Part shown: one piece after another, positions 5,574 through 41,368 of the stretch
How positions within the stretch are numbered: the first letter of the stretch is position 1
Layout of the letters: every line of letters begins with the position of its first letter
From: a virus
Lineage: Duplodnaviria; Caudoviricetes
Reading direction: 5' to 3' (one strand)
Virus record (IMG/VR): IMGVR_UViG_3300003465_000008
Location: 1-54,427 of that record
DNA: 54,427 bases
The notes under the pieces: generated by a model
What the model was told of the DNA's origin: nothing
What the model saw: the letters and a program-made list of their open reading frames with translations, nothing else
Databases searched by the model: none
Program-made: the position numbers and the translations under genes

Positions 5574-5592
5574 TTGGGGCTCCTATGGGGGG

Positions 5593-5961: not shown

Positions 5962-6334
5962 CGGTGTCCTTTCTATCGGTTGATTGCACGGTAACATCGC
6001 CGGCGGCGTTTACTTTGACATCCTCCGCGGGAATCGTTTTGCCCTTGACTGCTGTCGCTTCGGCAATGCGGCTGGCCGCGAGCGCGCTTTCCTGCCCACC
6101 CTTGCTTGAGCCGATCCAATACCCGACCGCCATCACGACCAGGTTAATGACCGTCTGCAAGACTGTCGATCGCTCGGCCTGATCGCTACCAAGGAAAACG
6201 GACGTTACCACAGCCGCGAAGATCAGCAGCAGCACGTAGGTGACGATCTTCTGCGTGCCGAATTTGGCCTCATCCAGTGCGAAGGGCGCGCGGCGTTCGA
6301 TCATGGGTGTAAGCCAAGCATGAATAAAACTCAC
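5945..6334 (-). CDS. holin-like two-TM protein
   Basis: Two TM segments followed by GYWIGSS. Confidence 0.6.
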   Translation of the reverse strand: MSFIHAWLTPMIERRAPFALDEAKFGTQKIVTYVLLLIFAAVVTSVFLGSDQAERSTVLQTVINLVVMAVGYWIGSSKGGQESALAASRIAEATAVKGKTIPAEDVKVNAAGDVTVQSTDRKDTDEPQK

Positions 6335-6582
6335 GGAAACAGCTTTTTCGCAAGATAAGCGACCATTGCCGAGATCGCGCCCGCAAGGGCCAGCAGCACT
6401 CCCTTAGCGCCTTTTGCCTGATTGATCTCGGCAGCATGTTCTTCTAATTTGCGCTCGATTTTGTCGTGGCGCTCGTCGTGCCGCGAAACGTAATTGTCGA
6501 ACTGCGCGTTCAAGGAGTCTAGCTTCCCAAGGATTTGGCCTAGAGCATGGGCGACACGCTCCGATCCGTGTTCTTCATTCAT
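6331..6582 (-). CDS. small coiled-coil protein with C-terminal TM (holin/XhlA-like)
   Basis: Coiled N-terminus, hydrophobic C-terminus; first gene of the lysis cluster. Confidence 0.6.
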   Translation of the reverse strand: MNEEHGSERVAHALGQILGKLDSLNAQFDNYVSRHDERHDKIERKLEEHAAEINQAKGAKGVLLALAGAISAMVAYLAKKLFP

Positions 6583-9518: not shown

Positions 9519-9692
9519 CTAGTGTACTCCCAAGATGTGCGCAACCATCAATTCCAGCGCCAGTTGCACGTCGCGGTCATCGGCGAGCGGATCTTCCACG
9601 TAGGCTGCCGGGCGGCGCCTGGTCGGTGTTGGCGGCGGGGCCGCGTAGAAGGTATCGCCCGGCGCGAAGAGGCCCGGCCAGCCGCCGAACAT
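9519..9692 (-). CDS. hypothetical protein
   Basis: ATG abuts the upstream stop (TGATG). Confidence 0.45.
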   Translation of the reverse strand: MFGGWPGLFAPGDTFYAAPPPTPTRRRPAAYVEDPLADDRDVQLALELMVAHILGVH

Positions 9693-12714: not shown

Positions 12715-13202
12715 GCCCGCTCGCCGAGGTCAAACACTGCCGTCGCCCTTGGATTGCTTTCAGCTTGCCGCACTTGCTCGCGCGCGGCCTCGGCGCATGC
12801 GCCAAACGAGTCCATGTCCCATTCATCGCCCGCAAAGTCCGCCGTGCAGGGGCACGCTTGCCAGTGAACGGCGATGGCGCCAGCGTCATCCACGGCTACC
12901 GGAAACGCGCGGCAGGCGAGCGGCCGCTGCTCGTAGATGCCGCAGACCGCGCGTCCATCCTGAAAGCTCAGATTCGGACAGCGCGAGACGCCGAGCTGGT
13001 AGGCAAACACGCGGTCGCCCGCCCGCAGCAGCGGAAATACCATTGCGGCCGGAAAGTGTTGCGCTTCTTCCGGCGTCAGGTACATGCCGAATTCATCGCC
13101 CGGCCCAGTGCATCCCGTGCGCGTGCAGCACTGGCCGCCGCGCTTACATTCAAACGCGCGCGGCATCCTCAAGCCTGCGGACCCGCACGAGAAGGTCATC
13201 AA
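12699..13202 (-). CDS. YkgJ/FliB-like Cys-cluster (Fe-S/Zn) protein
   Basis: [10 protein letters not shown]...RCPNL...[15 protein letters not shown]. Confidence 0.8.
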
Positions 13203-14427
13203 TCGTCGCCGTGTGTTCCTTGATCGCGTTCACGGTCGCCATGACGATCGGGTGTATCTGATAGTGCAGGATGTCGGTTTCCTCGGCGTCTCCGGGATGC
13301 AGTTTCCCGCGCTCCGTATACACCGCCTCGGGGATCACGGTTTGCAGTTGGTCGGCAATCAGACCGATCACGTCGCGGCCGTCGTTCGGCGTGTCGTACA
13401 GGCCGTTGTACTTGAAGATGCAAGGCTCGACGCTGATAACGGTCTGCACGCCGTCACGGTAAGGCCGGATGTCGCGCTTCAAACGGATGTCGGAACCCGT
13501 GGCACCTTGCGGCCCTTGCGTGCCCTGGGTGCCCTGCGTTCCGGTCGCACCCTGCGTGCCGGTCGCGCCTTGACTGCCGGTCGCGCCTTGACTGCCGGTC
13601 GCGCCTTGACTGCCGGTCGCACCTTGCGTACCCGTGGTTCCCGTCGTTCCCTGCGTGCCTGTTGCCCCTTGGCTGCCGGTCGTACCTTGCGCACCCGTCG
13701 TGCCTTGGCTGCCTTGCGTGCCAGCGGCTCCCTGCGATCCAGTCGTGCCCTGCGTGCCCGTGGTGCCGGTCGCACCTTGGGTTCCCGTCGCACCTTGGCT
13801 GCCGGTCGCGCCCTGCGTGCCGGTAGCGCCCTGACTGCCTTGCGTACCCGCAGCGCCTTGCGCACCCTGCGCTCCTGTGGTCCCTGCGTCCCCTTGCGCT
13901 CCGGTCGCGCCTTGCGTTCCCGTTGCGCCCTGAGAGCCGGTCGTACCTTGCGCACCCGTCGTACCCTGCGTCCCGGTCGCGCCCTGCGCGCCGTTACTCC
14001 CAGCCGCACCCTGACTGCCAGTAGCTCCCTGAGTTCCCGTAGTTCCCGTCGCACCTTGCGCACCTGTCGGTCCCTGAGCGCCAGTCGCTCCCTGCGCGCC
14101 TTGAGGCCCAGGTAGCGCGTCCTCGATGTCCGTCAGCGTCTTTTTCGTGATCGTCGCGGCAACCTGATCGCCCACAATGACCGCGCGCGCCGTAGTGCCT
14201 TCCTGCGCGCGCGTGATCGTGAATGTGTCGCCAACGATGGCGGTCACGCGCACAATCTCGGCATTCGTCGGAATCGCCAGTTCGCCAGCCGCAGCGACAG
14301 TCATGTTGAAAGGTGGCGTCGGAAAGAGCGCGCCTTCGCCAGTCGTAACAACGAGCGAGCCGCCGCTCGCAGCCGGACTCGGCGCGACCGCCACATGACT
14401 ATTCGCAAAGTTCTTATGCTGATCCAC
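13150..14427 (-). CDS. collagen-like fibre 2 with C-terminal S74 intramolecular chaperone
   Basis: GTG start with GGAGG; about 68 uninterrupted Gly-X-Y triplets; SDIRLKRDI...FKYN...[13 protein letters not shown]. Confidence 0.85.
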
Positions 14428-15718
14428 GGCGAGCCTCCAAGCGACGCACGCGCTCAAGTAGCGCGGTAAGCGTTGTGCCGTGTTCGCGCACGGCGTTGAC
14501 ATTGGCGAGCGCGAGCGGCGTCACGTCGTAGTGCAGGATGTCGGTTTCTGCGGCGTCCGTAGGCCGGAGTTTGCCGCGCACCGGGAATACCGATTCGGGA
14601 ATCAGGAGTTGCAGTTGATTCGCAATGATGTCCACCACGTCGCGGCCGTCCGTGGGGGTGTCATAGAGGCCGTTGTACTTGAATCGGTACGGCTCAACGC
14701 CGATCACGGTTTGCACGGCGTCAGCGTAGCGGCGGATCTGGCGCTTGAGCCGAACGTCCGAGGACGCGCCCTTTTTGCCCTGTACGCCTTGACGACCCTG
14801 CGAACCCTGTGCGCCCTGACTGCCCGTGGCCCCCTGCGTGCTGCTCGCCGTGCCCTGCGTGCCCGTCGTTCCGGTACTTCCCTGTGCGCCCGTGTCACCC
14901 TGAGCGCCGACAGCACCCTGCGTGCTGCTCGCCGTGCCTTGCGTGCCGGTCGTTCCGGTTGCGCCTTGAGCGCCGTCGGTGCCTTGCGTGCTGCTGGCAG
15001 TCCCTTGGGTGCCGGTCGTGCCCTGCGCGCCTTGGCTGCCAGTCGCACCTTGAGTCGAGTTAGCCGTGCCTTGCGTGCCGGTCGTTCCGGTTGCGCCTTG
15101 AGCGCCGTCGGTGCCTTGCGTGCTGCTGGCAGCGCCCTGTGCTCCCGTGCTTCCTTGCGCACCAGCACCTTGCGCGCCGGTCGCTCCCTGTGTGCTGCTC
15201 GCCGTACCCTGCGTGCCAGTAGTACCCGTCGCCCCTTGCGCACCGACCGCCCCTTGCGCACCGACAGCGCCTTGCACCCCGCCAGCCGTGCCATCGGTGC
15301 CCTGCGCGCCTACTGGCCCTTGCGGGCCGGTCACGCCCTGCGCCCCTGTGGCGCCTTGCGTCGTGCTCGAGCTTCCCTGCGCCCCCGCCGGCCCCTGCAT
15401 CGAATCCTCAATGTCGGTGATGACCTTCACCGTGATCGAGGCCGCGATCTGGTCGCCGACAAGGATCGCACGAGCTGTACTGCCCTCCTGCGCGCGCACC
15501 ACGGTCAGAGCATCGCCAACAATGCCGGTTACGCGCAGGATCTCGGCATTGGAAGCGAGCGGGATCGCGGCGGCAGGCCAAACCGAGACGTTGAACGGCG
15601 CGGCGGGGAAGCGCGCCCCCTCACCCGTCGCAACCGAGAGCGCAAGGCCGTAATCCGGCGGCGCTGGCGCTACTGCGACTGTTGAGTAAGCGAGATTCGC
15701 GTGTGCATCGAAACTCAT
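14414..15718 (-). CDS. collagen-like fibre 1 with C-terminal S74 chaperone (paralog of fibre 2)
   Basis: Shared N-terminal domain (EILRVT...RAQEGS.AR...GDQ); interrupted Gly-X-Y; SDVRLKRQI. Confidence 0.85.
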
Positions 15719-27010: not shown

Positions 27011-27868
27011 TCACGCGAGACTCACGAACTTCTCTAGGCCCGGTTCGCCCTGACGGACCATTTCGCTCGTGAGGCCGTCGCCATGCAACGTAACGTGCAG
27101 GAATTCCCGCCAGTTCTCCACCAGCCGGAAGAACTGCTCGACTTGCGTCATCAGTGCCAAGTTGCTCACGAAGAAGCGCTTGCCGACCCATACCGGCTTT
27201 TTCTCGTACTCGTATTCGCCCGCCACGTCGCAGGCGTGGTAGCTCGCGCCGTGCGGCGCGTAGCAGTTGTCGAAGCCGAAGAAGTGCTGGTGCTGGAACC
27301 CCATCATCATCGCAATGTTGATCGAGACGAGCGTCGCCGTAGAACCCCAGCAAATCGACTGCTCGCCGTTCAGCAGCGCTGGTTCATCTTCGATCTTCGC
27401 GACCGCTTGCCCGCGGTAGTGCCACATTTCCACGCGGTGCCCGGCAAGCTGATCGAACAGGGCGGGATCGCACTGCGAGGCAATGAGGTAGAGCGTTTCG
27501 GCCTGCGGGAGCGAGAGGTTGCCCTTATCTTCGACTCCGGCGTCGCACACCACTGCGTAGGTCGGGACAATCCCCTGCCGCACGACGTGATCGTGCGCAG
27601 AGCCGCAGACCAAGATGTTGCGGAACTGCCGAAGTTCGTCCCAGCGCTCGTTCAGCGAATGCCCGCAGGACACGATTGCGATAGGCTCGCCGATCCGCGC
27701 GCTCGCGCGTCCGCTTGTCTCTACGAAACGCGAGAGCGCGCGAGGCAGGTTCGCGCGAATGTTCGCGGCAAGCCGCTCGGTGGGAACGAGCGTGTAGGTC
27801 GAGACCGTTAGCGCTACGGTACTGCCGTCATCCCGGCGAACGTCGATGTAGCCTTGAGGCGTGTCCAT
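27011..27868 (-). CDS. DUF115 (MAF_flag10/MptE-like) protein, putative Maf-type glycosyltransferase
   Basis: IAIVSCGHSL, GIVPTYAVVCDA, ASQCDP..F, GSTAT...INIAMMMGF...FFGFDNCY. Confidence 0.7.
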   Translation of the reverse strand: MDTPQGYIDVRRDDGSTVALTVSTYTLVPTERLAANIRANLPRALSRFVETSGRASARIGEPIAIVSCGHSLNERWDELRQFRNILVCGSAHDHVVRQGIVPTYAVVCDAGVEDKGNLSLPQAETLYLIASQCDPALFDQLAGHRVEMWHYRGQAVAKIEDEPALLNGEQSICWGSTATLVSINIAMMMGFQHQHFFGFDNCYAPHGASYHACDVAGEYEYEKKPVWVGKRFFVSNLALMTQVEQFFRLVENWREFLHVTLHGDGLTSEMVRQGEPGLEKFVSLA

Positions 27869-27881
27869 GCCGTCTCATGGC

Positions 27882-29024
27882 TTAGATCGGCTCGAGCCAA
27901 CTCGTATCGGTAACGCCGCCGACGATCGCGGTTTCCGGCAGCGCGCCGGTAACGCCCGTGATCGCGAGCAGTTGCCCGATGTAGGCGAGCGACGGAACTC
28001 CTTGAATCCCGAAGCCGCCATCTTCGACCACCGAGCCAGTGACGACGATCTGGTTCGAAGTAAGCGCCGTCTGAATCCGCGCCGGCCGCGGGAAGGTCGC
28101 GCCCTTCTCGTGCAGCGGGTTCGTCCAGACCGGCGTCGCGCTGACGATGTTGCCGATCGTCGTCAGGATCGGCGTGGTGCCAGTCGCGAACGTCGTGCCG
28201 GTGAGGAGCGCGTTGAAGCTCGTCACCGTGAAGTTCATGATCGCGGTCGCGCCAGCCGCGCCTACCGAAAAGGCAAGCGTCGGCACACCAGTCAGCGGCA
28301 CACCCTGGTTGTTCGGATACAGGCCGGTCAGCAAGCCCGTGCCCGTGCATTTCAGCCGCACATGAACGCCGCTTCCCACGGTGTCGCGCGGGTCGTTGAT
28401 GAACGTGATCGTCGCCGCGGCGTAACCGTCTGCCTTGATCGCGTAGCCCGCACCTTGGTTGTCGATTACCACTTGCGCGGCGAGGAGTGCACCGCCCGTG
28501 ACCGTACAGTGCGCTGTCGCCTGCAGCCCGCCGGGCGGCGGAGCGCTGATGATGACGGTCGGCGGGTAGAGGTAGCCCGCGCCCACCGTATCGCCGATCA
28601 CGCCGGTTGCCGCCGTCACGCCGGTAACAACCGTGGTGGAAAGCGCGCCGCCCACGATCGGCACCCAGGTCGATGCGCCCGAGGAAGGCGTCACGGTGAG
28701 AGCAGTCGCCGTCGCCCCGATGCCGGTCGTCGCGCCGGTCGCTGCGGCCGTGGTGATGACTGCGGCCACCGGACAGCCGGTCAGGTTCGCCAAGCGGAAA
28801 TTCCCGCCATCGGAATTCACTTGTTTCGCGACGAACGTATTCGCCGCGCCGATCGTGCGCCAGATCCCGGTCACGGGATCGAGTTGCTGCAGGCTCGTGT
28901 AGGCTCCGAGCGTCACCGCGTAGTTGCCCGCCGGGATGATGTAGCTCACTCCCGCCGGCAGCGTGATCGCGTTGGTGTCCTTGCCTCTCAGACCGAGGCC
29001 GATTCCTTGTCCGCCGATAAGCAT
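27882..29024 (-). CDS. Thr/Gly/Ala-rich capsid decoration/structural protein
   Basis: Directly downstream of the major capsid gene; AAGGAG RBS. Confidence 0.65.
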   Translation of the reverse strand: MLIGGQGIGLGLRGKDTNAITLPAGVSYIIPAGNYAVTLGAYTSLQQLDPVTGIWRTIGAANTFVAKQVNSDGGNFRLANLTGCPVAAVITTAAATGATTGIGATATALTVTPSSGASTWVPIVGGALSTTVVTGVTAATGVIGDTVGAGYLYPPTVIISAPPPGGLQATAHCTVTGGALLAAQVVIDNQGAGYAIKADGYAAATITFINDPRDTVGSGVHVRLKCTGTGLLTGLYPNNQGVPLTGVPTLAFSVGAAGATAIMNFTVTSFNALLTGTTFATGTTPILTTIGNIVSATPVWTNPLHEKGATFPRPARIQTALTSNQIVVTGSVVEDGGFGIQGVPSLAYIGQLLAITGVTGALPETAIVGGVTDTSWLEPI

Positions 29025-29042: not shown

Positions 29043-30062
29043 CTAGAATGCGCCCCCGGTGATCCCGGTCAACTGCATTCCGCTGATCGGTTTCGCGCAC
29101 ACGAGCTGCATCGCGATGATGACCACGCCGACGTTCGCCACTTGCAGATTCGGGATCGCCGAGAAGAACCCCGAGAACGCGAACGGCGCGTCTTCCGATA
29201 CGTAGGCCGCGAAGTACTTCGTGTTCAGCATGTACGCCGTGCCCTTCGGGCAGAACGGATCGAGGAAGAACGGCGTGTCGCCGAGCAGCAACCCTCGGAA
29301 GCCCGAGTTCACCTGGTCGTCCTTGCCCCAGCGCGAGTTCGGCGTGTTCACGAACTGCTCGAGCGAGAGAAAGTCCTGCATGAGCGCGGTCCAGTCGGAC
29401 GGACTCATGACCACGAAGTCGGGCGCTTCGCCACCGTTGAGCGACGTTGCCTGCACGAGGTAGCCGAGCATCGCTGAGCGTGTGTTGACGGCGCCCGCGC
29501 TTGAGACGAGCGTGGACTTCCAGAACGTGCTGGCGGTTCGGCTGATCCCGCCGTAGGTCGTCACGTTCGTACCGTCATCGAACGCCTGTGGCAGGCCGTT
29601 GATGACTTGCGAGCCGTTCGGAAGCACGGAGTTGTTCGTGAACGCGGCGGTGGAGATCGCCTGCACAGCGACGGTCTTTGCGTCCGCCATGCGGGCGCGC
29701 ATGAGCGGGATGATCGCTTCGCTTGACTGAATCAGCGCTTCCATCCCCATGAAGCTGATCGGCACGACGCCTACGCAGAGGTTGAATTCCGCGTTCTGCA
29801 TGCCGGGCTGCACGGCGGGCTGCGGGAAGCCGCCCGAGTAGTCGGTCCACGCGAAGTTCACGAAGCTCGAGCCTTGCACGGGCACCGTGACCTGAGAGAC
29901 GCCGCCGCGCGCCTTCTGCGCGGTGCCAAAGAGCAGGTTCAGGAACGGCGTCGCCTTGTAGATTTGCACAAAGAGCGCCGGGACCACCGCGCGTCTTGTG
30001 GCCGCGACGAGTTCACTCCCTGCCGCGCCGCCAGGGACCAGACCGAGATTTAGTTGTGGCAT
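29043..30062 (-). CDS. major capsid protein
   Basis: 339 aa after the scaffold-like gene; ELVAATRRA...VQIY...YGGISR....FWKS pattern. Confidence 0.8.
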   Translation of the reverse strand: MPQLNLGLVPGGAAGSELVAATRRAVVPALFVQIYKATPFLNLLFGTAQKARGGVSQVTVPVQGSSFVNFAWTDYSGGFPQPAVQPGMQNAEFNLCVGVVPISFMGMEALIQSSEAIIPLMRARMADAKTVAVQAISTAAFTNNSVLPNGSQVINGLPQAFDDGTNVTTYGGISRTASTFWKSTLVSSAGAVNTRSAMLGYLVQATSLNGGEAPDFVVMSPSDWTALMQDFLSLEQFVNTPNSRWGKDDQVNSGFRGLLLGDTPFFLDPFCPKGTAYMLNTKYFAAYVSEDAPFAFSGFFSAIPNLQVANVGVVIIAMQLVCAKPISGMQLTGITGGAF

Positions 30063-31536: not shown

Positions 31537-32595
31537 ATGGAAAACAAAACGGAAAAACGCATGCGTCTGCGCAAGGCCGCGCGCAAGGGCGGCTTGAAGG
31601 GAGGGCGGGCGCGGGCACGACGCCTAGCGGCAGCGCGCCGCCGCGCAATCGCGCAGCGCGCAGCGAAGGCGCGTTGGGCCGATGCAGTGGTGTCACCGCC
31701 GCACGCAGTGAGTACATGGAGCGCGCGAGCGCAACGCACGCCGTTTCTCATCGCGGAAATCGGCATCAACCACAACGGGAAACTTGAACTCGCGAAGCGC
31801 ATGATTCGCGCCGCAAAGGACGCGGGTTTTGATGCGGTGAAGTTCCAGAAGCGCGCGATTGAACGCGTCTACACAGCGGAATTCTTGGCGAGTCCGCGCA
31901 CGAGTCCGTGGGGCAGCACGCAGCGCGAGCAAAAGGAAGGATTGGAATTTTCCGCCGCCGCGTATCGTCACATCGACCGCTACTGCGAGTCATGCGGAAT
32001 CGCGTGGTCGGCTTCCGCTTGGGATCTGGATAGCCAAGCGTTCCTGCGGCAATTCGATCTGCCGTTCAACAAGGTCGCGTCGCCGATGCTCGGCCACCGG
32101 CCGCTACTCGCCGAGATTGCGGCCGAGCGCAAGCACACGTTCATTTCGACCGGCATGTCCACGCTCGCCGAGCTTGACGAAGTGGTGGAGTTATTCGTGC
32201 GCGCGAATTGTCCGTTCGAACTCATGCACTGCAATTCGACTTACCCGATGCCGGACGAGGACGCGAACCTGCTCTGCATTCCGATGCTGCGCGAGCGCTT
32301 CGGCTGCAACGTAGGCTACTCCGGGCATGAGACGAGCGTGACGAAGGTATGCGTCGCGGCCGTCGCGCTCGGCGCAACTTCGATCGAGCGCCACATCACG
32401 CTCGACAAGACGATGTACGGCTCGGATCAAGCGGCGTCCGTCGAAACGCACGACCTCGCGAACTTCGTGCAGGTAGTGCGCGCGATCCCGCTCGTACTCG
32501 GAACCGGCAAGAAGGAAGTCACGGAAACCGAATGGCCAGCGCGCAAGAAACTGCGCGTCGAAGTGCCGGCGACGCCGGTCGCGCAAGCCGCATGA
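31537..32595 (+). CDS. neuB: nonulosonic acid (N-acetylneuraminate-type) synthase with a basic N-terminal extension
   Basis: IAEIGINHNG, DAVKFQKR, KVAS, ISTGM, LMHCNSTYP, GYSGHE, IERHITLD..MYGSDQAAS. Confidence 0.92.
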   Translation: MENKTEKRMRLRKAARKGGLKGGRARARRLAAARRRAIAQRAAKARWADAVVSPPHAVSTWSARAQRTPFLIAEIGINHNGKLELAKRMIRAAKDAGFDAVKFQKRAIERVYTAEFLASPRTSPWGSTQREQKEGLEFSAAAYRHIDRYCESCGIAWSASAWDLDSQAFLRQFDLPFNKVASPMLGHRPLLAEIAAERKHTFISTGMSTLAELDEVVELFVRANCPFELMHCNSTYPMPDEDANLLCIPMLRERFGCNVGYSGHETSVTKVCVAAVALGATSIERHITLDKTMYGSDQAASVETHDLANFVQVVRAIPLVLGTGKKEVTETEWPARKKLRVEVPATPVAQAA

Positions 32596-33320
32596 GCTAC
32601 AACCTCGCGCTGATCGGCGCGCGCTCGGGTTCCAAGGGCGTGCCCGGCAAGAACGTGCGGATGCTCGGCGGGCACCCCTTGCTCGCGTGGGCGATCCGCG
32701 CCGCCGCGCACACCGAAGGCATCGACCGCATCATCGTGTCCAGCGACTCGCAAGCTTACTGCGATCTGGCGCGCCACTACGGCGCGGAAGTCCCCTTCCT
32801 GCAGCCGGAAAAGACGGCGCGCGACGACTCCGGCGACTACCCGTTCGTGAAGCACGCAATCGAGTGGATCGGCGACCATGAAAGCAGTTATCCCGAAAAA
32901 ATCGTGCTGCTGCGGCCCACCACGCCGCTCCGCGAGCCGAAGGTGATCGCGGAAATCATGAAGGTGCTGCGCTACGACCAGATGAATCAGTACAGCGCGG
33001 TGCGCAGCGTTCACGAAATGGCGGAATCCGCGCACAAGTGCTTTCACGTCATCAAGATGCGCCTGCAACGGCTCGACGGCTCGTACTCGATTGACGCCGC
33101 GAACCGCCCGCGTCAGCGCTACCCCAAGACCTACCACGCGAACGGCTACGCCGATGTGTTCGGCGTCGAATACGTCCGCACGCACTGCGTGCTCTTTGGT
33201 GGCCGCGTGCGCGCCTTCATCACGCCGCGCACCACCGAAGTCGATACGGAGGAAGATTTGAACTACCTAGAATACGAAGTCCGCAAACACGAATCGCTGA
33301 TCGGAAGGTTATTTTCATGA
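32592..33320 (+). CDS. neuA: acylneuraminate cytidylyltransferase (CMP-nonulosonate synthetase)
   Basis: LIGARSGSKGVPGKN...GHPL, VSSDS, LRPTTPLR, RQ..PKTY.ANG, EVDTEED. Confidence 0.9.
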   Translation: MSYNLALIGARSGSKGVPGKNVRMLGGHPLLAWAIRAAAHTEGIDRIIVSSDSQAYCDLARHYGAEVPFLQPEKTARDDSGDYPFVKHAIEWIGDHESSYPEKIVLLRPTTPLREPKVIAEIMKVLRYDQMNQYSAVRSVHEMAESAHKCFHVIKMRLQRLDGSYSIDAANRPRQRYPKTYHANGYADVFGVEYVRTHCVLFGGRVRAFITPRTTEVDTEEDLNYLEYEVRKHESLIGRLFS

Positions 33321-34666
33321 GAACAGGATTCGCGAACGACATGCGTCGCGCCTGGGCGGTGCAGACCAGCTATCGCAACATCATGAAGGGCAGCGTGAGC
33401 GAACTGCCGACGCAATCCTTCTTTTACCGGCTCGGCCAAGTCGAGGCGCGTTCCATGCACGGTCAGTTGCCTGTCGTCTGGTCGCGCGCGAAGGATTACA
33501 GCGTGTGGGACGCGGCCGGCAATCAATATCTCGATTTCACGTCCGGCATCTTCGCGGCGAACCTCGGGCATTCGGATGACGCGCTGCTCGGGAGTTTGAG
33601 AGCCGCGCTCGAGGCCGGCTTGCTGCACTGCTACACCTACGGCACGCGATTGCGGCTTGAATACCTCGAAGCGCTCACCGAGTGGAGCGGATTCGAGAAA
33701 GCCTATCTTGTGTCCTCGGGCACGGAAGCCACGGAAACCGCGCTGCGACTGATGCGGCTACACGGCGAGAAGGTCGGCAAGGCAAGGCGTGCCGTGGTCT
33801 GTATCGACGGCAGTTTCCACGGTCGCACGCTCGGCGCCGCGTTGATGGGCGGCTCGGGTCGCGAGGAAGCGCGGGCGAACGGGATCTACCACATCGCACC
33901 GCCTGCGCTTCACGCCCCCGATAGCGTCAATCACTTCTTCACGGTCAGCCTCGGCGCGCTGTGGGATCAGGAGTGCGACCCAGAGCGCGATGTATGCGGC
34001 TTCCTGATTGAGACCTATCAGGGCTGGAACGCGCGCTTCTACCAGCCTGCGTTTGTGCAGGCGATCGAGAAGTTCTGCCGCGATCACGGCATCCTGCTCG
34101 CCTTCGATGAAGTGCAGGCTGGATTCGGGCGCACGGGCCGCAAGTTCGGCTACCTGCACTACGGCGTGCGGCCGGACCTGATCTGCGTCGGCAAGGGCAT
34201 GGGCGGCGGCTTTCCGCTGGCGGGCGTGCTCGGGAGTGCGGCAATCCTTGACCTACCGGCACCCGGCGACATGAGCAGCACGCACGGCGCGAATCCCTTG
34301 GCTTGCGCGGCGGGGCTTGCCGTGATCGAGGAAATCGAACGCCGGAATCTCGTCGGAGAAGCCGAGCGCAAGGGTCGCCTGCTTGCCAAGGAACTCGAAA
34401 AGATCGTGACGAGCTTCCCGCGCCGCATCGCCTACGCGAGTGCTCAAGGACTCGTTGCGGCGCTCGTTTTTCAGGGCGACGAATCGTCCGAGTTCGCAAC
34501 GCGCGTCGCGCACGAGTGCCTGCGCCGCGGGCTGCTCATCGTGCATACTGGCCGCGAATCCGTGAAACTCGGCCCACCGCTCAGCATTCCCGATGACGCC
34601 CTAGCCGAAGGAACGTATGTCCTCACCGAAGCCATTGCCAGTGCCAGCAATGCCGAACAAGGTTGA
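33317..34666 (+). CDS. class III PLP aminotransferase
   Basis: WDAAGNQYLDF.SG...NLGH, SGTEATE, SFHGRT, FDEVQAGFGRTG, GKGMGGGFP, THGANPL. Confidence 0.9.
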   Translation: MRTGFANDMRRAWAVQTSYRNIMKGSVSELPTQSFFYRLGQVEARSMHGQLPVVWSRAKDYSVWDAAGNQYLDFTSGIFAANLGHSDDALLGSLRAALEAGLLHCYTYGTRLRLEYLEALTEWSGFEKAYLVSSGTEATETALRLMRLHGEKVGKARRAVVCIDGSFHGRTLGAALMGGSGREEARANGIYHIAPPALHAPDSVNHFFTVSLGALWDQECDPERDVCGFLIETYQGWNARFYQPAFVQAIEKFCRDHGILLAFDEVQAGFGRTGRKFGYLHYGVRPDLICVGKGMGGGFPLAGVLGSAAILDLPAPGDMSSTHGANPLACAAGLAVIEEIERRNLVGEAERKGRLLAKELEKIVTSFPRRIAYASAQGLVAALVFQGDESSEFATRVAHECLRRGLLIVHTGRESVKLGPPLSIPDDALAEGTYVLTEAIASASNAEQG

Positions 34667-34895
34667 CCAGCGGATTACGGTCGAAGCGCCGATCTTGTCC
34701 GTATACTTGCATGGCAGAGACATGATCTGCACGCTTGATCCCCCGCACGATTTCAACTACGAACAATACGCCCTCTTGATCTGCGACTTGGTGCGTCACG
34801 TCGCGCGCGCATTTGAAATAGAAGAGGACGACGTGTGGCAGTGGGTCGAGCGCGAGCGCGCGAACCCCACGAGCACGCTCAGTTCGCCGTCGTGA
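34650..34895 (+). CDS. hypothetical protein
   Basis: Overlap-coupled ORF in the operon. Confidence 0.6.
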   Translation: MPNKVDQRITVEAPILSVYLHGRDMICTLDPPHDFNYEQYALLICDLVRHVARAFEIEEDDVWQWVERERANPTSTLSSPS

Positions 34896-35737
34896 ACGCT
34901 CCGCTCGCGATTGATCTGTTCTGCGGACTCGGCGGCTGGACCGAAGGATTGCTATCCGAAGGCTATTACGTCGTTGGCTTCGACGTAGAACGCCATCATT
35001 ACGGCAGCGAAAAATATCCCGCGCAATTAGTCCTCCAAGACGTGCTGACAATCCACGGTAAGCAGTTCAAGGATGCCGCGTTGATCGTCGCTTCGCCGCC
35101 ATGCCAGGAATTCAGCTACATGGCGATGCCGTGGTCGAAGGCGAAAGCGATCCGCGCCGAGTACTTGAGCGGAAAGCGCGCCGTAAAGAAGCTCACTGCG
35201 CTATTCGACGCTTGCTTTCGTATCCAGCGCGAAGCAATTGAGGCCGCTGGTCGGTTCATTCCGCTGGTAGTCGAGAACGTGCGTGGCGCTTGCGAATGGG
35301 TCGGGCGGTCGCGCTGGAATTACGGATCGTTCCATCTTTGGGGCGATGTGCCTGCGCTGATGCCGATGACGAAGGCGGTGAAGGTTCCGGGGATGAATTG
35401 GTCAGGGTTGGACAAGCCCGGTTACGTGGCCGTAGCGTTCAACGATGCGCGGCATACGAAAAACAACGGCGGCTCATGGTTCAACATCGGCTCTCCGGGG
35501 CAAAAGGTCACGAATCAGAATCCGGTGTCTGGTGCCAAGAACATGAACATTCACATGCCCTACGCGGAATTGAAAGATCACGTTAAGCAGGGAGGCGATT
35601 GGTTTAATTCCGAGCAGCCGTCAATCAGTAGACTAACTGGCAGCAAGTCAGCCGCGCGCAAGGCCGCATCGGCGCGCATTGCGAAAATACCTTTTCCGCT
35701 CGCGCAGCACATCGCACGCTATTGGAAGCCACAATGA
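34892..35737 (+). CDS. atypical C5 DNA cytosine methyltransferase-like protein
   Basis: IDLFCGLGG (motif I), ASPPCQEFS (IV), VVENV (VI); divergent C-terminus. Confidence 0.75.
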   Translation: MNAPLAIDLFCGLGGWTEGLLSEGYYVVGFDVERHHYGSEKYPAQLVLQDVLTIHGKQFKDAALIVASPPCQEFSYMAMPWSKAKAIRAEYLSGKRAVKKLTALFDACFRIQREAIEAAGRFIPLVVENVRGACEWVGRSRWNYGSFHLWGDVPALMPMTKAVKVPGMNWSGLDKPGYVAVAFNDARHTKNNGGSWFNIGSPGQKVTNQNPVSGAKNMNIHMPYAELKDHVKQGGDWFNSEQPSISRLTGSKSAARKAASARIAKIPFPLAQHIARYWKPQ

Positions 35738-36162
35738 TCCTCGGCCTTCGGCACGTCGGCATCGTGGTATCGGACCTTGAGCGACAGGTAGACTTCTACT
35801 GTGGCGTCCTCGGCTTTCGCGTCTTGAAGCGCATGGACGAGTCGGGCGAGGAAGTGGACCGCATGCTCGGCATCGAGGATGCCGATGTCACCACGGTAAA
35901 ACTCATCGCGCCAGGAGGCGGCGTGGTCGAACTGCTGAAATTCCATTCACCGGAGTGCCGCGAGTCCGACGACCGCGAACTGCACGATTTGGGTATCTCG
36001 CACATCGCGCTGACGCTCACGGACTTGTACGCCGAATACGCGGACCTCTCGCGTAAGGGCGTGCGGTTCATTTCCCCTGTGGAACGCTCCGGGGACGCCT
36101 ACGTCGCGTTCTGCTTCGACCCCGAGGGCAACGTGCTCGAATTGGTGCAGGCGACGCAGTGA
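35734..36162 (+). CDS. VOC/glyoxalase family protein
   Basis: RHVGIVVSDLE...FY..VLG, VELLKF, HIAL, DPEGNVLELV. Confidence 0.88.
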   Translation: MILGLRHVGIVVSDLERQVDFYCGVLGFRVLKRMDESGEEVDRMLGIEDADVTTVKLIAPGGGVVELLKFHSPECRESDDRELHDLGISHIALTLTDLYAEYADLSRKGVRFISPVERSGDAYVAFCFDPEGNVLELVQATQ

Positions 36163-36434
36163 AGCGCGTCATCCGCACGCCCATGCAGCAACGCCTGACG
36201 CGCGTTGCGTTCGCCGTGAAGAAGGCGCTCGGCCTGCCCTATGTGCGGCCGAAACCCTACCGCAACGGCAGGCTGTTCGTGATCTTCATGCACGAGCGCC
36301 CCGGACACTGCTGCCGCGTTCCGAATCTCTCGCTGGTCGCGTCGATTGAGGATGTGGTCGCAACCTGTCGCAAAGCGTGGGAGGAGTTTCTGAAAGAGGA
36401 ACGCGAGGCGATGCAGGAGGAAACCGCGCCGTGA
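36159..36434 (+). CDS. hypothetical protein
   Basis: GTGA-coupled at both ends. Confidence 0.55.
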   Translation: MKRVIRTPMQQRLTRVAFAVKKALGLPYVRPKPYRNGRLFVIFMHERPGHCCRVPNLSLVASIEDVVATCRKAWEEFLKEEREAMQEETAP

Positions 36435-37237
36435 GTCTCGTAGGTATTTCACAAATAAACATCGAACTTTCCTCGCGCTGCGACAAGCACACTTTGTGCT
36501 TCATGTGCGGGCACCAGAACGAGAAGCTGAATGCATCGCTCAAATACGGCGACATGGATTTCGCGCTGCTGCAACGCATTCGCGCGCAAATTGAGCCGCC
36601 GGTCATCGTGTCCTTTCACCGCGACGGCGACCCGCTCGTTTACCCGCGCCTCGCCGCCGCACTCGCCCTATTCCGAGACTTCCCGACTTCTGTCGTCACG
36701 CACGGCGAAGCATTGGCGAGGCGGGCCGCAGAAATCATCGGCAACTGTACGATCGTCACGGTGTCCGTCATTCCCAATGACGAGGATCGCGACATTCAGC
36801 TTGCCTCCGTCGCGCAATTCCTGCGGCTCAAAGGCGAAGCGCCGCCGCGCGTGCAACTGAAATTCGTCGGTGCCGTGAAGGATAGCGAACGCTACGAAGC
36901 GCTCGGCGTGCCGATCATCAACCGCGCGCTGCACTCGGCCAAGGGAAACTGGAACTACGTCCGCATGAAGCCGAGCGTTCCGGAGATTGGCACTTGCCTA
37001 GATTTCTTGTCCCGCCCTACCGTCGATTGGCGCGGCAGGATGTTTATTTGTAACCGCTTGGACGTTGAGGATGCCGGCCTGCTCGGCGACCTGAACACGC
37101 ACACGCTGGAGGAGCTTTGGAACGGGCCTGAGCGCAAGCGGATGCTCGCCGCGCACCTGGCCGGACGGCGAGAGGATGCGAACGCGCTTTGCGCGCGCTG
37201 CGAGTCCTACGGCATCCCGACGCCAAGCGGGTACTGA
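36431..37237 (+). CDS. radical SAM/SPASM protein
   Basis: NIELSSRCDKHTLCFMC, GDPL.YP, C...VDWRG....C...GDLN..TL.ELWNG...CARC. Confidence 0.82.
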   Translation: MSLVGISQINIELSSRCDKHTLCFMCGHQNEKLNASLKYGDMDFALLQRIRAQIEPPVIVSFHRDGDPLVYPRLAAALALFRDFPTSVVTHGEALARRAAEIIGNCTIVTVSVIPNDEDRDIQLASVAQFLRLKGEAPPRVQLKFVGAVKDSERYEALGVPIINRALHSAKGNWNYVRMKPSVPEIGTCLDFLSRPTVDWRGRMFICNRLDVEDAGLLGDLNTHTLEELWNGPERKRMLAAHLAGRREDANALCARCESYGIPTPSGY

Positions 37238-37238
37238 T

Positions 37239-37439
37239 ATGGCCGACCGTCTCGCCGACCAATTCTCGAAACTCGTCAATCAGTCCGACAACGACCCTCG
37301 CGGATGGGCGCGTCGCATCTTGGACCGCCACGCATTCGGTGCGTCGGTCGCTCCGATCGCGCTCAAGTTCGCCAGAGAAGCGCTGCGCATCAGGGACGAT
37401 CACGTAGACGCTGAGACGCGCGAACCAGGCCAGGACTGA
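37239..37439 (+). CDS. hypothetical protein
   Basis: DPRGWARRIL...FAREAL; last gene of the + operon. Confidence 0.55.
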   Translation: MADRLADQFSKLVNQSDNDPRGWARRILDRHAFGASVAPIALKFAREALRIRDDHVDAETREPGQD

Positions 37440-37465
37440 AAAAAAGGCCGGATCGTGTCCGGCCT
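37439..37465 (-). terminator. rho-independent terminator after the portal gene
   Basis: 8-bp stem AGGCCGGA/TCCGGCCT followed by a T-run on the minus strand. Confidence 0.75.
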
Positions 37466-37494: not shown

Positions 37495-39159
37495 CTACGC
37501 GCGCGCCTTTTTCCCGCTGAGTAGTTCGGGATGCTCCTGCAGCATCTTCTGGCGCGCCGCGGCGCGAGCACGCACTCCGGCAATCAGCAAGTCCTCCTGC
37601 GGCGGGTGCGTGAGCAGAATCACTTCCTCCGGGCCGGCCGCGCCGACCTTGGCGAGCGCAAAGGCAAGCTCGCGCGCGTCATCCACGAAGGCCGGCGACG
37701 CACTGTGGCTGTCGATTTCCACGTAGTAGTCGTCCGGCAGTTGCTTGAGCAGGAATTGCTCCTTCTTGTCCGAGACGAACACACGCGCCTCTTTTGCCTG
37801 CATCAGTTTGAACGTGAGTGTCGCCGACTCTTCTGCGTCGCGTTCTACCCGTAGCGAGCGCTCGCGCAATTTCGGGCTGGCGGTTCGCATCAGCGTGCGC
37901 GCGTGGACGTTCGCCCGCACTCCCGGCTCGCCCTGCCCCTGCATGATTGGCTTGAATCCACCGATCTCGTCGAACATTTCCGAGAGCGTGCGGATTTCGA
38001 CGAAGAGCTCCTCTGGGATGTTCGGAATCAGGTTTTCGATCTTCGCGCCCGGCGACTGCTCCTGAATGAAGCCGCCCGGCGCAATCGCGGCGCGCATTTT
38101 CTGATTCGTGACGCCGGAAAACCCGATGAACGCCTTGGGGGGCTTCACTTGGAGTTTCAGCAGGCGCCGCACGTCCAGCATGCGCTCCGAGAGCAAGTCC
38201 TGCAGAATCTTCACGCGCTCGACTTCGGAGCGGCCCCAAAAGTAGCCGGATACCGGATCGGCACAGATTTTCGAGAACGGGTGAAGGTGCTTGACGCCGG
38301 TAAGGTTCCTGTGCCGGTATTTGCCTTCGAGCAGCAGTTCACCCTCGATCAACTGGATCGTCGTGTAGTCATCGCGGTCGTCATCCACCACCCATAGCTC
38401 GTCAAGGCGCAAGAGCCGAGACATCATTTCAGGGCTGAGTTTCGTCTGGCTCGAAGGCGACATGGAAACCTGCCCCTTCGCGCCGCTCGGCGTCGCCGTC
38501 GTCACGGGCTGCACGCCGCCGAGCACGGTCTGGTGCAGCCAGTTGCGGCGCAGATCCTCGCCCTTGTTGCCGCCCAAGCGCTTGAGCTTATCCAGAATCT
38601 CGGCTTGGTCCGGTCGGCCTTCCGCGAGTGCCGCGACTTCCTCTTTCGTCAGATAGCTCGTGTGGCACATCGCGCCCTGATCTTCAAGCCTGCCGCGGTC
38701 CTCGCGATCGACGCCGAAGAATTCTGGATGCACGAGTTGCGGATCGAAGCCCGGCGCGAACGTGCCCGGCTCCATCCAGTTGTGCTTCATGATCCCGCAA
38801 CCCTTCACGAGGCCAATCGTCACGCCCTGCGAAAAGACGACATCGGCATCGGCCCGCCGGTACTCCCGCGACAGGTATTTCGATGCCGCCCGCGCCCGCG
38901 TAATCCAGGCGTCGCCCTCGGTTGCATCGAACCCGATCGAGTAGCGGACTTCGCCGGGTGCGTACAGGTAGGATGCCGTTCGGTCGATGTGAACGCCAGT
39001 GCGGTTGTAGAGCGACTCTTTGCCGTCGTCGGAACCCATCTCGTAGTACGAGAGGTTCGACGCGGCTTGCTGTGCGCGGTCGGCCTGCGAGTAGCAGCAG
39101 ATTTCGATCTGCTCGCGCGCGAAGTCGAGGAGTTTGCGGGCAGTATCGGGGACGCGCAT
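37495..39159 (-). CDS. portal protein (podovirus type)
   Basis: 554 aa; GYFWGRSEV...LQ..L..R and GQGEPGVRA..HA patterns; lies between terminase and capsid genes. Confidence 0.75.
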   Translation of the reverse strand: MRVPDTARKLLDFAREQIEICCYSQADRAQQAASNLSYYEMGSDDGKESLYNRTGVHIDRTASYLYAPGEVRYSIGFDATEGDAWITRARAASKYLSREYRRADADVVFSQGVTIGLVKGCGIMKHNWMEPGTFAPGFDPQLVHPEFFGVDREDRGRLEDQGAMCHTSYLTKEEVAALAEGRPDQAEILDKLKRLGGNKGEDLRRNWLHQTVLGGVQPVTTATPSGAKGQVSMSPSSQTKLSPEMMSRLLRLDELWVVDDDRDDYTTIQLIEGELLLEGKYRHRNLTGVKHLHPFSKICADPVSGYFWGRSEVERVKILQDLLSERMLDVRRLLKLQVKPPKAFIGFSGVTNQKMRAAIAPGGFIQEQSPGAKIENLIPNIPEELFVEIRTLSEMFDEIGGFKPIMQGQGEPGVRANVHARTLMRTASPKLRERSLRVERDAEESATLTFKLMQAKEARVFVSDKKEQFLLKQLPDDYYVEIDSHSASPAFVDDARELAFALAKVGAAGPEEVILLTHPPQEDLLIAGVRARAAARQKMLQEHPELLSGKKARA

Positions 39160-40196: not shown

Positions 40197-40421
40197 CTAG
40201 AACGAAGTCGGCTTGGCAATCGCTCGCGTCAGCGCCATGAAGCCTTCTTGCAAGTGCGTGCGTGCGATGGAGGCCCACCGCTTGTCCGTGTCGGGATTCG
40301 CGTTGACGATTTCCAGTTCCGCGCCGCACTTCGCGGCGAGACCCTTGACCATGTTCATCAGGTCGATTTCCGCTTGCGACAGATCACGGTAGCCGGTAAT
40401 CATCTTGTGCTGGTTTTCCAT
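40197..40421 (-). CDS. acb2: Acb2-like anti-CBASS cyclic-oligonucleotide sponge
   Basis: MENQHKMITGYRDLSQAEIDLMN.VK...RWASIARTHLQEGFMALTRAIAKPTSF closely follows the Acb2 pattern. Confidence 0.85.
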   Translation of the reverse strand: MENQHKMITGYRDLSQAEIDLMNMVKGLAAKCGAELEIVNANPDTDKRWASIARTHLQEGFMALTRAIAKPTSF

Positions 40422-40438: not shown

Positions 40439-41368
40439 TTACGAACACTCCATGAATAGATTGCTCGTCTGCCCGCGATCCCGCAGGTAGTCGGTATACA
40501 TGCGGTCGATCTGCGTGAGCGCGTTCGCGAGCCACGCCGCAATGTGCTCGTCCCGTGCGGCGAACTTGATCGGTGCCAAGCCGGGGTGGCACTCGGCAAG
40601 CGGCCTTCCGTTTACAAGCCATTGCAGCGTGCCGAGCAGGTTGTAGTCCTGCGTGAAACTCACGGCGACGTTCGCGAACCCGGCCGCCTCGCCAAGCCTG
40701 CGCAGCGACTTCGCCGAGAAGTAAAACAGGTGGTCGGCGTGAAAGTAGAAGCGCTCGTACTCGGGTACGCCCCAAGCAGTGCGCAGCGCGTCGTGCAGGT
40801 TAGGAACTTCGACGAACAGCACACCGCCCGGAGCGAGTACGGAACGCATGCCCTTCATGAGCGCAAGCGGGTCATCGACGTGCTCAAGCGTCTGGAAACA
40901 GCACACGGCGTCGAACTTGTCTTGCGCAAACTTGGACTCGCGCAGGACACGATGGTCGGCTTCGATGCCAAGCGATTCCATGAACGCGCAGCACTCGCGA
41001 TCCGGTTCGACGGCGCAACGCCGCTGGTAGCCGACAAGGTGCGCGAGAAACTGCCCGGCTGACGCGCCGACTTCAAGGACGCGCGAGCCGCCGCCCGCGC
41101 GCTTTTGCAAGCGGTCCAAGCGCTCGCCCTGATATTGGCTGTACGCCTCGAAAATCTCCCGCGCGTTCGTGGTCGAGCCGTCAGCGCGGTGCGAGGCGTG
41201 CTGGCGGTACTCGCCGTCGTAGTAGGCGGCGTCGCGCGGTTCGGCAACGAGGAAGGCAAGCTCGCAGGTTTCGCACTCGTACACCGCGCCCGCGCCGCGA
41301 CGCAACTCACGCGTGAGAACGCGCACGTCGTCCGATCTGCACCACGGCGCTGCGCAAAGCACGGTCAT
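40439..41368 (-). CDS. class I SAM methyltransferase with N-terminal Cys cluster (type often found in glycan clusters)
   Basis: VLEVGASAG, FDAV..FQTLEHVDDP, L.PGG.LFVEVPN, HLFYFS. Confidence 0.85.
   Translation of the reverse strand: MTVLCAAPWCRSDDVRVLTRELRRGAGAVYECETCELAFLVAEPRDAAYYDGEYRQHASHRADGSTTNAREIFEAYSQYQGERLDRLQKRAGGGSRVLEVGASAGQFLAHLVGYQRRCAVEPDRECCAFMESLGIEADHRVLRESKFAQDKFDAVCCFQTLEHVDDPLALMKGMRSVLAPGGVLFVEVPNLHDALRTAWGVPEYERFYFHADHLFYFSAKSLRRLGEAAGFANVAVSFTQDYNLLGTLQWLVNGRPLAECHPGLAPIKFAARDEHIAAWLANALTQIDRMYTDYLRDRGQTSNLFMECS

Follow-up and report, generated by a model that had tools for sequence, protein, structure and literature searches.

In the bacterial pathways leading to neuraminic (Neu), pseudaminic (Pse) and legionaminic (Leg) acid (NeuB/NeuA, PseB-C-H-G-I-F and LegB-C-H-G-I-F, respectively) a NeuB-family synthase, which carries out a condensation with phosphoenolpyruvate (PEP), is followed by a CTP_transf_3 enzyme. 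The same succession, with active-site motifs kept, opens an operon found at positions 31537..37439 (+ strand) of a tailed-phage genome (IMG/VR record IMGVR_UViG_3300003465_000008), the whole of which (54,427 bp, given a completeness rating of 100% and having direct terminal repeats) constitutes the window analysed here. Unlike the aforementioned pathways, the phage genome contains neither nucleotide-sugar dehydratase nor DegT aminotransferase, acetyltransferase or hydrolysing 2-epimerase, its synthase is devoid of the SAF domain and scores below both equivalogs of the family, and the partners of the synthase are an omega-aminotransferase, a vicinal oxygen chelate (VOC) protein and a radical S-adenosylmethionine (SAM) enzyme resembling BtrN. 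The reading that we favour, and to which a probability of about 0.5 can be assigned, is that the phage would make, from a host precursor, an unusual CMP-activated ulosonic acid, aminated and perhaps methylated, which a cut-down Maf-like enzyme encoded in the capsid module would transfer to a virion protein.

Three other groups of systems offer points of comparison. The route to 3-deoxy-octulosonic acid (Kdo) through KdsD-KdsA-KdsC-KdsB and the KDN-9-P synthase/phosphatase of Bacteroides thetaiotaomicron proceed via phosphorylated intermediates; the bacterial modules related to the phage operon likewise combine an isomerase of the SIS (sugar isomerase) type, a PEP-condensing synthase, a KdsC-like phosphatase of the haloacid dehalogenase (HAD) type and a CMP-transferase, but their isomerase is GmhA-like and not KdsD-like, their synthase belongs to the NeuB family and not to that of KdsA, and neither isomerase nor phosphatase accompanies the phage copy. 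In butirosin biosynthesis the BtrN step is followed by transamination, and in Shewanella Kdo8N is formed by KdnB/KdnA; common to these systems and, as proposed here, to the phage is the oxidation of a hydroxyl to a carbonyl that is then aminated by a pyridoxal phosphate (PLP) enzyme, the phage oxidising enzyme being a homologue of BtrN (2-deoxy-scyllo-inosamine dehydrogenase) with a single Cys4 domain. The phage differs in that its aminotransferase is of class III instead of DegT type, that an ulosonic acid, or a precursor of one, presumably serves as substrate, and that the cluster motif is CX5CX2C. Lastly, with the Maf enzymes (Magnetospirillum magneticum 5MU5 and Clostridium botulinum Maf) the candidate transferase of the phage shares the PF01973 domain, a central sialyltransferase-like fold and the link to genes of a CMP-ulosonate pathway, whereas its size (285 as opposed to 632 amino acids) and its location within a capsid module, which makes flagellin an unlikely acceptor, set it apart.

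As to phages, the closest precedent is represented by EpaA and EpaB (PMC12053666), which are likewise encoded by phages, have a nonulosonic acid as their substrate and include a CTP_transf_3 domain; those are, however, two tailoring enzymes of temperate phages acting on a capsule sugar made by the host, whereas the present set extends from synthase to transferase, consists of other enzymes and belongs to an apparently virulent phage. A literature search, to which most subscription journals were out of reach, yielded no paper on the glycosylation of phage virions with nonulosonic acids or on the cassette described here.

A short NeuB and its companion enzymes

The operon consists of nine ORFs on the + strand encoding, in this order, NeuB, a CTP_transf_3 enzyme, an Aminotran_3 enzyme (AT3), a 92-aa protein, a protein resembling C5-cytosine methyltransferases (C5-MTase-like), a VOC protein, a 91-aa protein, a radical SAM enzyme and a last small ORF. 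When the likelier starts are adopted (GTG 34892 for the C5-MTase-like gene, ATG 35734 for VOC, GTG 36431 for the radical SAM gene and ATG 37239 for the last ORF, of 66 aa), six of the eight junctions are start/stop overlaps of 4 nt, one is a 50-nt overlap (AT3/92-aa ORF) and one a 1-nt gap. The tight packing of mostly overlapping genes reported by the original prediction, which had been made from the DNA sequence, is thereby confirmed, and the Pfam matches are those it had described. Equally well founded was its claim that the early enzymes are lacking: in the 70 translations of the window that were scanned, Pfam detects no Epimerase_2 domain (NeuC/LegG/PseG type), no Polysacc_synt_2 domain (PseB/LegB type dehydratase), no DegT aminotransferase and no acetyltransferase domain.

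The first gene (31537..32595, +) encodes a short ulosonate synthase belonging to the NeuB family: PF03102 (E 9.1e-66) covers residues 89–326 of 352 and the entire profile (1–241 of 241), and is the sole Pfam domain of the protein. No SAF domain is found in this NeuB by Pfam, as the original prediction had it in denying the protein a C-terminal SAF/antifreeze-like domain, and the alignment with the equivalog profile ends at position 279 of 329. The best match in the PDB (E 3.1e-33) is 6ncs, itself a short NeuB of 290 aa, and the alignment of the two TIM-barrel domains reveals identical metal- and PEP-binding motifs, the aligned segments being AEIGINHNG, KFQ, K(V/I)AS, HC.S.YP, GYS.H and IE(R/K)H. 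The identity to characterised synthases is ~30%, and the scores fall under the cut-offs of the two equivalogs, namely 243 bits vs 399.65 for TIGR03569 (NeuB_NnaB) and 173.5 vs 340.25 for TIGR03586 (PseI). In the NeuB of N. meningitidis the SAF domain provides a substrate-binding Arg, and a published survey reports SAF-less NeuBs mainly in environmental bacteria, leaving their role open (PMC8208679). These short proteins (~279 aa) form a very large family, with at least 8000 candidates at E 1e-10, the best 120 of which share 63–79% identity with the window NeuB. A quick tree, supported by SH-aLRT only, was built from short-NeuB relatives without labelled Neu/Pse/Leg/KDN references and comprises 115 of the 121 rows, six (L003 among them) having been dropped because fewer than 240 residues aligned or because a stop interrupted the match. 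The window NeuB falls in it within a 45-row clade (SH-aLRT 99) made up nearly entirely of Pseudomonadota, which points to proteobacterial hosts, and the viral rows are dispersed among the bacterial ones.

The product of the second gene (32592..33320, +) is a predicted CMP-ulosonate synthetase, i.e., a NeuA/PseF-like cytidylyltransferase (PF02348, E 7.8e-17; 62.2 bits for CTP_transf_3, the cut-off being 22.6), whose best NCBIfam match is PseF (TIGR03584), aligned over its full length (1–218 of 222) with 113 bits vs a cut-off of 205.7. AT3 (33317..34666, +) is a PLP aminotransferase of class III (omega type) identified by PF00202 (E 3.5e-79) and reaching no NCBIfam cut-off; the solved structures nearest to it are the omega-type acetylornithine, GABA and ornithine aminotransferases. 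The VOC protein (35734..36162, +; PF00903, E 1.8e-21) is a metalloenzyme similar to glyoxalase I and methylmalonyl-CoA epimerase, both of which are its PDB matches, and our guess is that it might be an epimerase working beside a carbonyl.

The radical SAM gene (36431..37237, +; SPASM Pfam E 9.5e-08) encodes a predicted dehydrogenase of the BtrN type with a twitch domain. Although phmmer finds nothing in the PDB with the single sequence, the family profile, built from eight sequences, matches BtrN 4m7t with E 6.4e-28 in two stretches corresponding to the core and to the C-terminal domain, the next PDB match having an E of 2.8e-08. The cysteines of the radical SAM cluster (C35/C41/C44) are invariant in the eight aligned homologues, and there are four invariant C-terminal cysteines as well (C207, C225, C272 and C275); their spacing in the cluster motif is CX5CX2C in the three phage copies, i.e., the window, L002 (9184-9975) and L003 (12001-12801), and the canonical CX3CX2C in the other five. 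The reaction of BtrN itself is the oxidation of an alcohol to a ketone, and its twitch domain holds a single Cys4 auxiliary cluster (PMC10337720); a three-Cys radical SAM core, a twitch domain with Cys4 and a specific similarity to BtrN are all found in the phage enzyme. From this homology, taken together with the omega-type nature of AT3, we infer an oxidation-then-transamination pair, so that the likely tailoring step would consist of oxidation and subsequent transamination. In the loci without radical SAM enzyme AT3 is accompanied by short-chain dehydrogenases/reductases (L043, L053, L105, L019, L023, L028 and L038) and also by an AP_endonuc_2 TIM-barrel protein, a distribution that fits the existence of aerobic and anaerobic versions of one and the same step. 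Elsewhere in the window, a 332-aa ORF of the early region (334-1329, +) weakly matches phrog_9298, “radical SAM domain protein” (E 1.3e-06), and has no Pfam match.

Recurrence of the cassette and probable origin of the precursor

The companion enzymes of NeuB had been originally regarded as a non-canonical set, yet this set is not idiosyncratic. Using the window proteins as tblastn queries against 40 viral loci carrying a short NeuB and against the best 80 of 369 bacterial relatives, NeuA was found in 26/40 viral and 55/80 bacterial loci, AT3 in 10/40 and 14/80, VOC in 14/40 and 13/80, the radical SAM enzyme in 4/40 and 4/80 and a methyltransferase in 8/40 and 18/80. Wherever it was found, the AT3 homologue adjoins NeuA (10 viral and 14 bacterial loci), and the VOC gene comes after AT3 in bacterial and viral cassettes alike. 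The order NeuB-NeuA-AT3-VOC is kept in several phages and in at least nine bacterial loci from several phyla (loci of Methylophilaceae, Pelagibacter, Acidimicrobiales, WOR-3, Lachnospiraceae, Actinomycetota and Thermodesulfovibrionia), and the Thermodesulfovibrionia locus L119 has the order NeuB-NeuA-AT3-VOC-methyltransferase-radical SAM. The cassette is a mobile, recurrent module common to many bacteria and to other phages. Among phages it is seen in uncultured viral genomes only: at the DNA level the operon matches no GenBank phage, and the 50,697 GenBank phage records yield three weak NeuB matches and zero Maf matches, so that no cultured GenBank phage carrying the cassette was found.

The bacterial loci also offer an indication as to the substrate of the synthase. 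A GmhA-like SIS isomerase is present in 46/80 of them, within 3 kb of NeuB in 45 cases and directly upstream of it in 18, and scores 188–195 bits vs the TIGR00441 cut-off of 209; a HAD protein resembling KdsC and the KDN-9-P phosphatase (NCBIfam NF058599) is present in 44/80, nearly all of these SIS and HAD genes lying within 3 kb of NeuB, and both occur together in 33/80. In L105, a Lachnospiraceae locus, a single protein (1346-2437) consists of the KdsC/KDN-9-P-phosphatase-like HAD fused to the GmhA-like SIS and is encoded directly upstream of the short NeuB. Since the presence of SIS and HAD beside the bacterial short NeuB obeys the same principle as the Kdo and KDN-9-P routes, the acceptor of NeuB is probably, by analogy, an aldose phosphate, and the route a sugar-phosphate one; should the GmhA-like isomerase seen beside the bacterial NeuBs be a source of heptose phosphate, the product may have a number of carbons other than nine. 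SIS is found in 6/40 viral loci and HAD in 0/40, and the window has neither, so that host enzymes would be required both for the precursor and for its dephosphorylation. The original prediction had left the choice between the use of a host precursor and an unusual route to the sugar; both halves appear to hold, in that a host precursor would be needed and tailoring by radical SAM enzyme, aminotransferase and VOC would probably lead to an unusual ulosonate.

A different conclusion is reached for the C5-MTase-like gene (34892..35737, +), which had been counted among the companion enzymes. Its product matches PF00145 with 33 bits (cut-off 22) in residues 26–96 only, corresponding to profile positions 4–77 of 324; motifs I (DLFCGLGG), IV (PPCQ) and VI (ENV) are visible, and phmmer finds nothing in the PDB. 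The family is a very large one found on phage-sized contigs (at least 8000 candidates passed, the best 120 sharing 56–73% identity), one homologue being annotated at source as C-5 DNA methylase. In the cassette loci, on the other hand, a match occurs in 0/80 bacterial and 1/40 viral cases, and in the latter, a related phage, the gene is 4.5 kb away from the cassette. Furthermore, a canonical C5 methyltransferase occupies the same site in L122, a 12.9-kb fragment of a related phage (87, 70 and 65% identity to the window in the major capsid, portal and Maf-like proteins, respectively) that has no cassette there: between the portal gene and the next structural gene of L122 there are just a basic 70-aa ORF and this 325-aa methyltransferase, both on the opposite strand. 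The C5-MTase-like gene is therefore judged to be a resident passenger of the insertion site, of DNA-methyltransferase type and outside the sugar pathway.

The beginning of NeuB bears a trace of this insertion. Its first ~60 residues (31537-31720), which lie outside the synthase domain and have no Pfam match, form a basic KGG-like extension, rich in Gly-Gly and Arg and ending with Ala-Lys-Ala-Arg-Trp, which is homologous to the free-standing 70-aa ORF of L122 (4985-5197, -); from this homology we conclude that the cassette was inserted into a pre-existing unit consisting of small ORF and C5 methyltransferase, and that NeuB thereby became fused to the small ORF. The extension is carried also by four NeuBs of the databases, of 329–344 aa. 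The three small ORFs of the operon, for which there is a match in 0/40 viral and 0/80 bacterial loci, are proposed to be, like the C5-MTase-like gene, passengers of the insertion site. They encode a 92-aa protein (34617..34895, +; third-position GC content, GC3, 0.74) which is specific to the window phage, with a merely sub-threshold DUF5076 match and no tblastn match in the 120 related loci; a 91-aa protein (36159..36434, +; GC3 0.82) without family match, whose gene has 4-nt overlaps on both sides; and the last, 66-aa protein (37239..37439, +; 87 aa from an upstream ATG), it too without family match.

A second relative, G002 (50,164 bp, 88% complete, comprising loci L003 and L124), keeps the order methyltransferase-portal-...-major capsid protein-p380-Maf-p295, with identities to the window of 87% for the major capsid protein, 65% for the portal, 58% for the Maf-like protein and 48% for the methyltransferase. 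There is no insertion in G002 at the site of the window's operon, and a cassette (NeuB-NeuA-AT3-VOC-HNH-radical SAM) is located ~17 kb away, its five products shared with the window being 73, 44, 52, 54 and 62% identical. The HNH endonuclease gene of this cassette (L003:11186-12004), between the VOC and radical SAM genes, has the position held in the window by the 91-aa ORF. Since the window and G002 each hold cassette, methyltransferase and Maf-like gene, both near-complete genomes of the lineage combine the three, though the cassette has moved.

The Maf-like gene of the capsid module and the possible destination of the sugar

The operon lies between the portal gene (37495..39159, -) and the major capsid gene (29043..30062, -; phrog_9953, E 8.9e-25), and all the genes flanking it are virion genes on the - strand; the portal assignment combines a weak SU10_portal match (24 bits, under the cut-off) with 65–70% identity to the gene having the same position in L122 and L124. 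The coordinates originally given, correct for the operon, left out two genes outside it that had been overlooked, a Maf-like gene (27011..27868, -) and a methyltransferase gene (40439..41368, -). The latter encodes a class I SAM methyltransferase (Methyltransf_23; PF13489, E 2.7e-25) with an N-terminal Cys-rich stretch, has a copy at the same place in G002/L124 and is 26% identical to the methyltransferase of the L119 cassette, of which it is likely, on sequence grounds, to be the counterpart.

The Maf-like gene, two genes after the major capsid gene, encodes a cut-down Maf/MptE-like (DUF115) protein of 285 aa which is the candidate ulosonate transferase (PF01973, 46.3 bits vs a cut-off of 34.6). 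Phmmer finds nothing in the PDB, while the AlphaFold2 model (pLDDT 93, pTM 0.91) has the Maf of Magnetospirillum (5mu5) as its best fold match in the PDB by Foldseek, with E 7.4e-09 and a TM score by query of 0.64 over 250 columns (0.31 by target), followed, after the archaeal MptE, by GT29 sialyltransferases (~2e-04) and CstII (7.5e-03). The domain and the central sialyltransferase-like fold of Maf are thus found in the phage protein, and its full-length architecture is not; nor are there flagellar genes in the phage that would provide a flagellin acceptor. The substrates that Maf enzymes attach to Ser/Thr of flagellin are CMP-activated ulosonic acids of eight or nine carbons, Kdo among them (PMC11339370; bioRxiv 10.1101/2020.06.03.131540). 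The phage protein has 58 homologues, all with PF01973 and several on contigs of 54–57 kb; the gene keeps its place in L122 and in G002/L124, and a search for related loci with the single Maf-like protein returned one locus, L122. In L025, from an unrelated SU10-like phage, the genes for major capsid protein, MptE-like protein, CTP-transferase, a fusion of MptE and methyltransferase, radical SAM enzyme, NeuB and adaptor form one string, the MptE-like::methyltransferase fusion (5035-6651) being beside the cassette. Candidate transferases of other kinds were seen beside the cassette in two other phages, one with a GT29-like sialyltransferase domain (L028:7058-7849) and one with a GT10-like domain (L038:13858-14781).

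The substrate, order of steps, product and acceptor that we infer from these data are as follows. PEP and an aldose, which is probably a phosphate ester provided by host enzymes, would be condensed by the SAF-less NeuB; the BtrN-like dehydrogenase would convert a hydroxyl into a carbonyl without oxygen, and the omega-type AT3 the carbonyl into an amine; beside this carbonyl the VOC enzyme might act as an epimerase or isomerase, and the methyltransferase encoded outside the operon may add a methyl group to the product; the PseF-like enzyme would activate the acid to a CMP-sugar, and the 285-aa Maf-like enzyme would transfer the sugar to Ser/Thr of a virion protein. A more specific version of this scheme, in which the lineage makes a hitherto undescribed amino-, possibly methyl-substituted ulosonic acid from a host sugar phosphate, with amination by the radical SAM/transaminase pair and attachment by the cut-down Maf to the capsid surface in particular, is advanced only tentatively and would have to be given the lesser odds. 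As to the acceptor, one speculative possibility is the 380-aa protein rich in Thr, Gly and Ala (15.3% Thr, 19.5% Ser+Thr) that is encoded in the virion module between the capsid and Maf-like genes (27882..29024, -) and kept in L122 and L124; in the ranking of virion proteins by Ser/Thr content no acceptor stands out. No family could be assigned to this protein (its best Atlas score, 0.82 with TM <=0.35, is unusable), and the idea that it is a second Maf was rejected (hhalign probability 0.1%).

Several observations weigh against the preferred scheme. The operon is on the strand opposite to the structural genes, so that it and the Maf-like gene may be expressed at different times; L122 (albeit a 12.9-kb fragment) has the Maf-like gene and no cassette at the insertion site; the SIS and HAD partners are missing from the phage; and the radical SAM enzyme departs from the canonical CX3CX2C. 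The Maf-like protein is devoid of the domains flanking the core of the 632-aa Maf, and its model resembles also the archaeal kinase MptE (E 9.2e-05). Moreover, an MptE-like match is present in just 19 of the 39 NeuB-carrying viral records searched (L029 was left out, and most records are fragments), 10 of these matches coming from tblastn in the flanks and 9 from whole records at E<=0.001, of which 3 pass the cut-off; two NeuB-carrying viral records rated 100% complete have no such match, and some loci hold GT29- or GT10-like genes instead. Finally, the phage MptE-like queries matched 0/80 bacterial loci by tblastn, so that in bacteria the sugar would have other destinations.

The main competing explanation is that the sugar is placed on host structures (lipopolysaccharide, capsule, flagellin or pili), where it would bring about receptor masking or superinfection exclusion, while the virion is left unmodified. 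The bacterial cassettes are indeed located among surface-polysaccharide genes (ABC transporter, GT2, mannose-1-P guanylyltransferase, flippase-like), the operon is transcribed apart from the structural genes, and remodelling of a capsular nonulosonic acid of the host by the prophage enzymes EpaA/EpaB is documented for Acinetobacter baumannii (PMC12053666). Nevertheless, with its terminal repeats and without any match to integrase or repressor in a PHROGs scan of 72 translations, the window phage looks virulent; its only gene with a sialyltransferase fold is found within the capsid module, a place kept in three related phages and in L025; and no polysaccharide polymerase, flippase or lipid-carrier transferase is matched in the window. 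Modification of the host surface in place of the virion is accordingly unlikely, if by no means negligible.

That NeuB and NeuA merely boost an ordinary nonulosonate pathway of the host as auxiliary metabolic genes, AT3, VOC and radical SAM enzyme being unrelated to them, would account for the absence from the phage of the early pathway enzymes and the ensuing need for host precursors, as well as for the many NeuB loci in which NeuA is the sole partner (55/80 bacterial loci with NeuA vs 14/80 with AT3). We consider it quite improbable, however, given the conservation of the order NeuB-NeuA-AT3-VOC across phyla and between phages, the translational coupling of the operon genes and a NeuB that is distant from the characterised synthases and devoid of the SAF domain. 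Improbable to much the same degree is the explanation that AT3, VOC, the radical SAM enzyme and the methyltransferase together produce a substituent that is not a sugar, such as an N-acyl or amino-acid side group, subsequently joined to the ulosonic acid. Known flagellar nonulosonates do bear acetamidino, N-methyl-glutamyl or glyceroyl groups, and the closest solved relatives of AT3 act on amino-acid-like omega-amines, but the window holds no ligase, ATP-grasp enzyme or acyltransferase by which the group could be attached, and the homology with BtrN favours the oxidation of a carbohydrate or cyclitol hydroxyl. That the operon hypermodifies the phage DNA, a group derived from the sugar being placed on cytosine, or its placement prepared, by the C5-MTase-like enzyme, is hardly credible: phage pathways of this kind do employ PLP and radical SAM enzymes, and translational coupling ties the C5-MTase-like gene, which has a catalytic PCQ motif, to its neighbours in the operon, but this gene is absent from all other cassettes except for the distant copy of the related phage, it belongs to a family that is independent of NeuB, and CMP activation and the Maf-like fold favour glycosyl transfer to protein or glycan.

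Were the preferred reading, synthesis of an aminated ulosonic acid and its transfer to the virion, correct, the large, cross-phylum family of SAF-less NeuBs would have, for the first time, a pathway model open to testing, in which a sugar-phosphate route is combined with tailoring by oxidation and transamination, and the viruses that glycosylate their own particles would come to include tailed phages, which would use acidic, sialic-acid-like sugars. Such sugars could alter the charge, stability and adhesion of the particles and their recognition by hosts and grazers, and cut-down Maf enzymes with acceptors other than flagellin would represent compact tools for protein O-sialylation. If the attachment is to the capsid, the phage would give the first example of a bacteriophage whose particle is coated with a sialic-acid-like sugar.

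Neighbouring genes and other features of the genome

On the portal side of the operon the genes of the - strand are, in this order, those for terminase, helicase, N6/N4 methyltransferase, endolysin, the Methyltransf_23 enzyme, an Acb2/Tad1-like ORF, two small ORFs and the portal; past the operon come an ORF of 130–185 aa, a 192-aa ORF, the major capsid gene, the genes for the 380-aa Thr-rich and 285-aa PF01973 proteins and the tail genes. The end of the operon and the stop codon of the portal gene are separated by a terminator-like hairpin with a T-run on the - strand (37445..37465); a promoter scan did not rise above chance (1 site vs 1.5 expected).

The Acb2/Tad1-like ORF (73 aa, 40197-40418, -), between the methyltransferase and the portal-proximal genes, has the hairpin domain PF24729 (67.7 bits, E 1e-18) and is thus a candidate anti-CBASS or anti-Thoeris protein, which would soak up cyclic-nucleotide immune signals as a sponge. 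Among the tail proteins (6583-8457, - and 13150-15718, -) the tailspike has the PF12218 endosialidase N-terminal extension domain (30.7 bits), and two fibre proteins with collagen repeats terminate in the Peptidase_S74 endosialidase-chaperone domain; a sialidase catalytic domain was detected neither in the tailspike nor in these fibres, and phmmer finds nothing in the PDB for the tailspike. Directly after the collagen-like tail-fibre genes there is a possible second modification cluster (9692-13199, -), which includes a 403-aa protein with tetratricopeptide repeats (TPR) and a weak Methyltransf_23 match, a 166-aa CxxCxxCC (PF03692) protein and, between the two, a 602-aa fusion of a virus-wide N-domain of ~340 aa with a second BtrN-like radical SAM domain (CX3CX2C, hhalign probability 77%). 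The Atlas partners of this N-domain are Methyltransf_21, SPASM, GT2 or TPR, with one cluster in which 32% have GH130.

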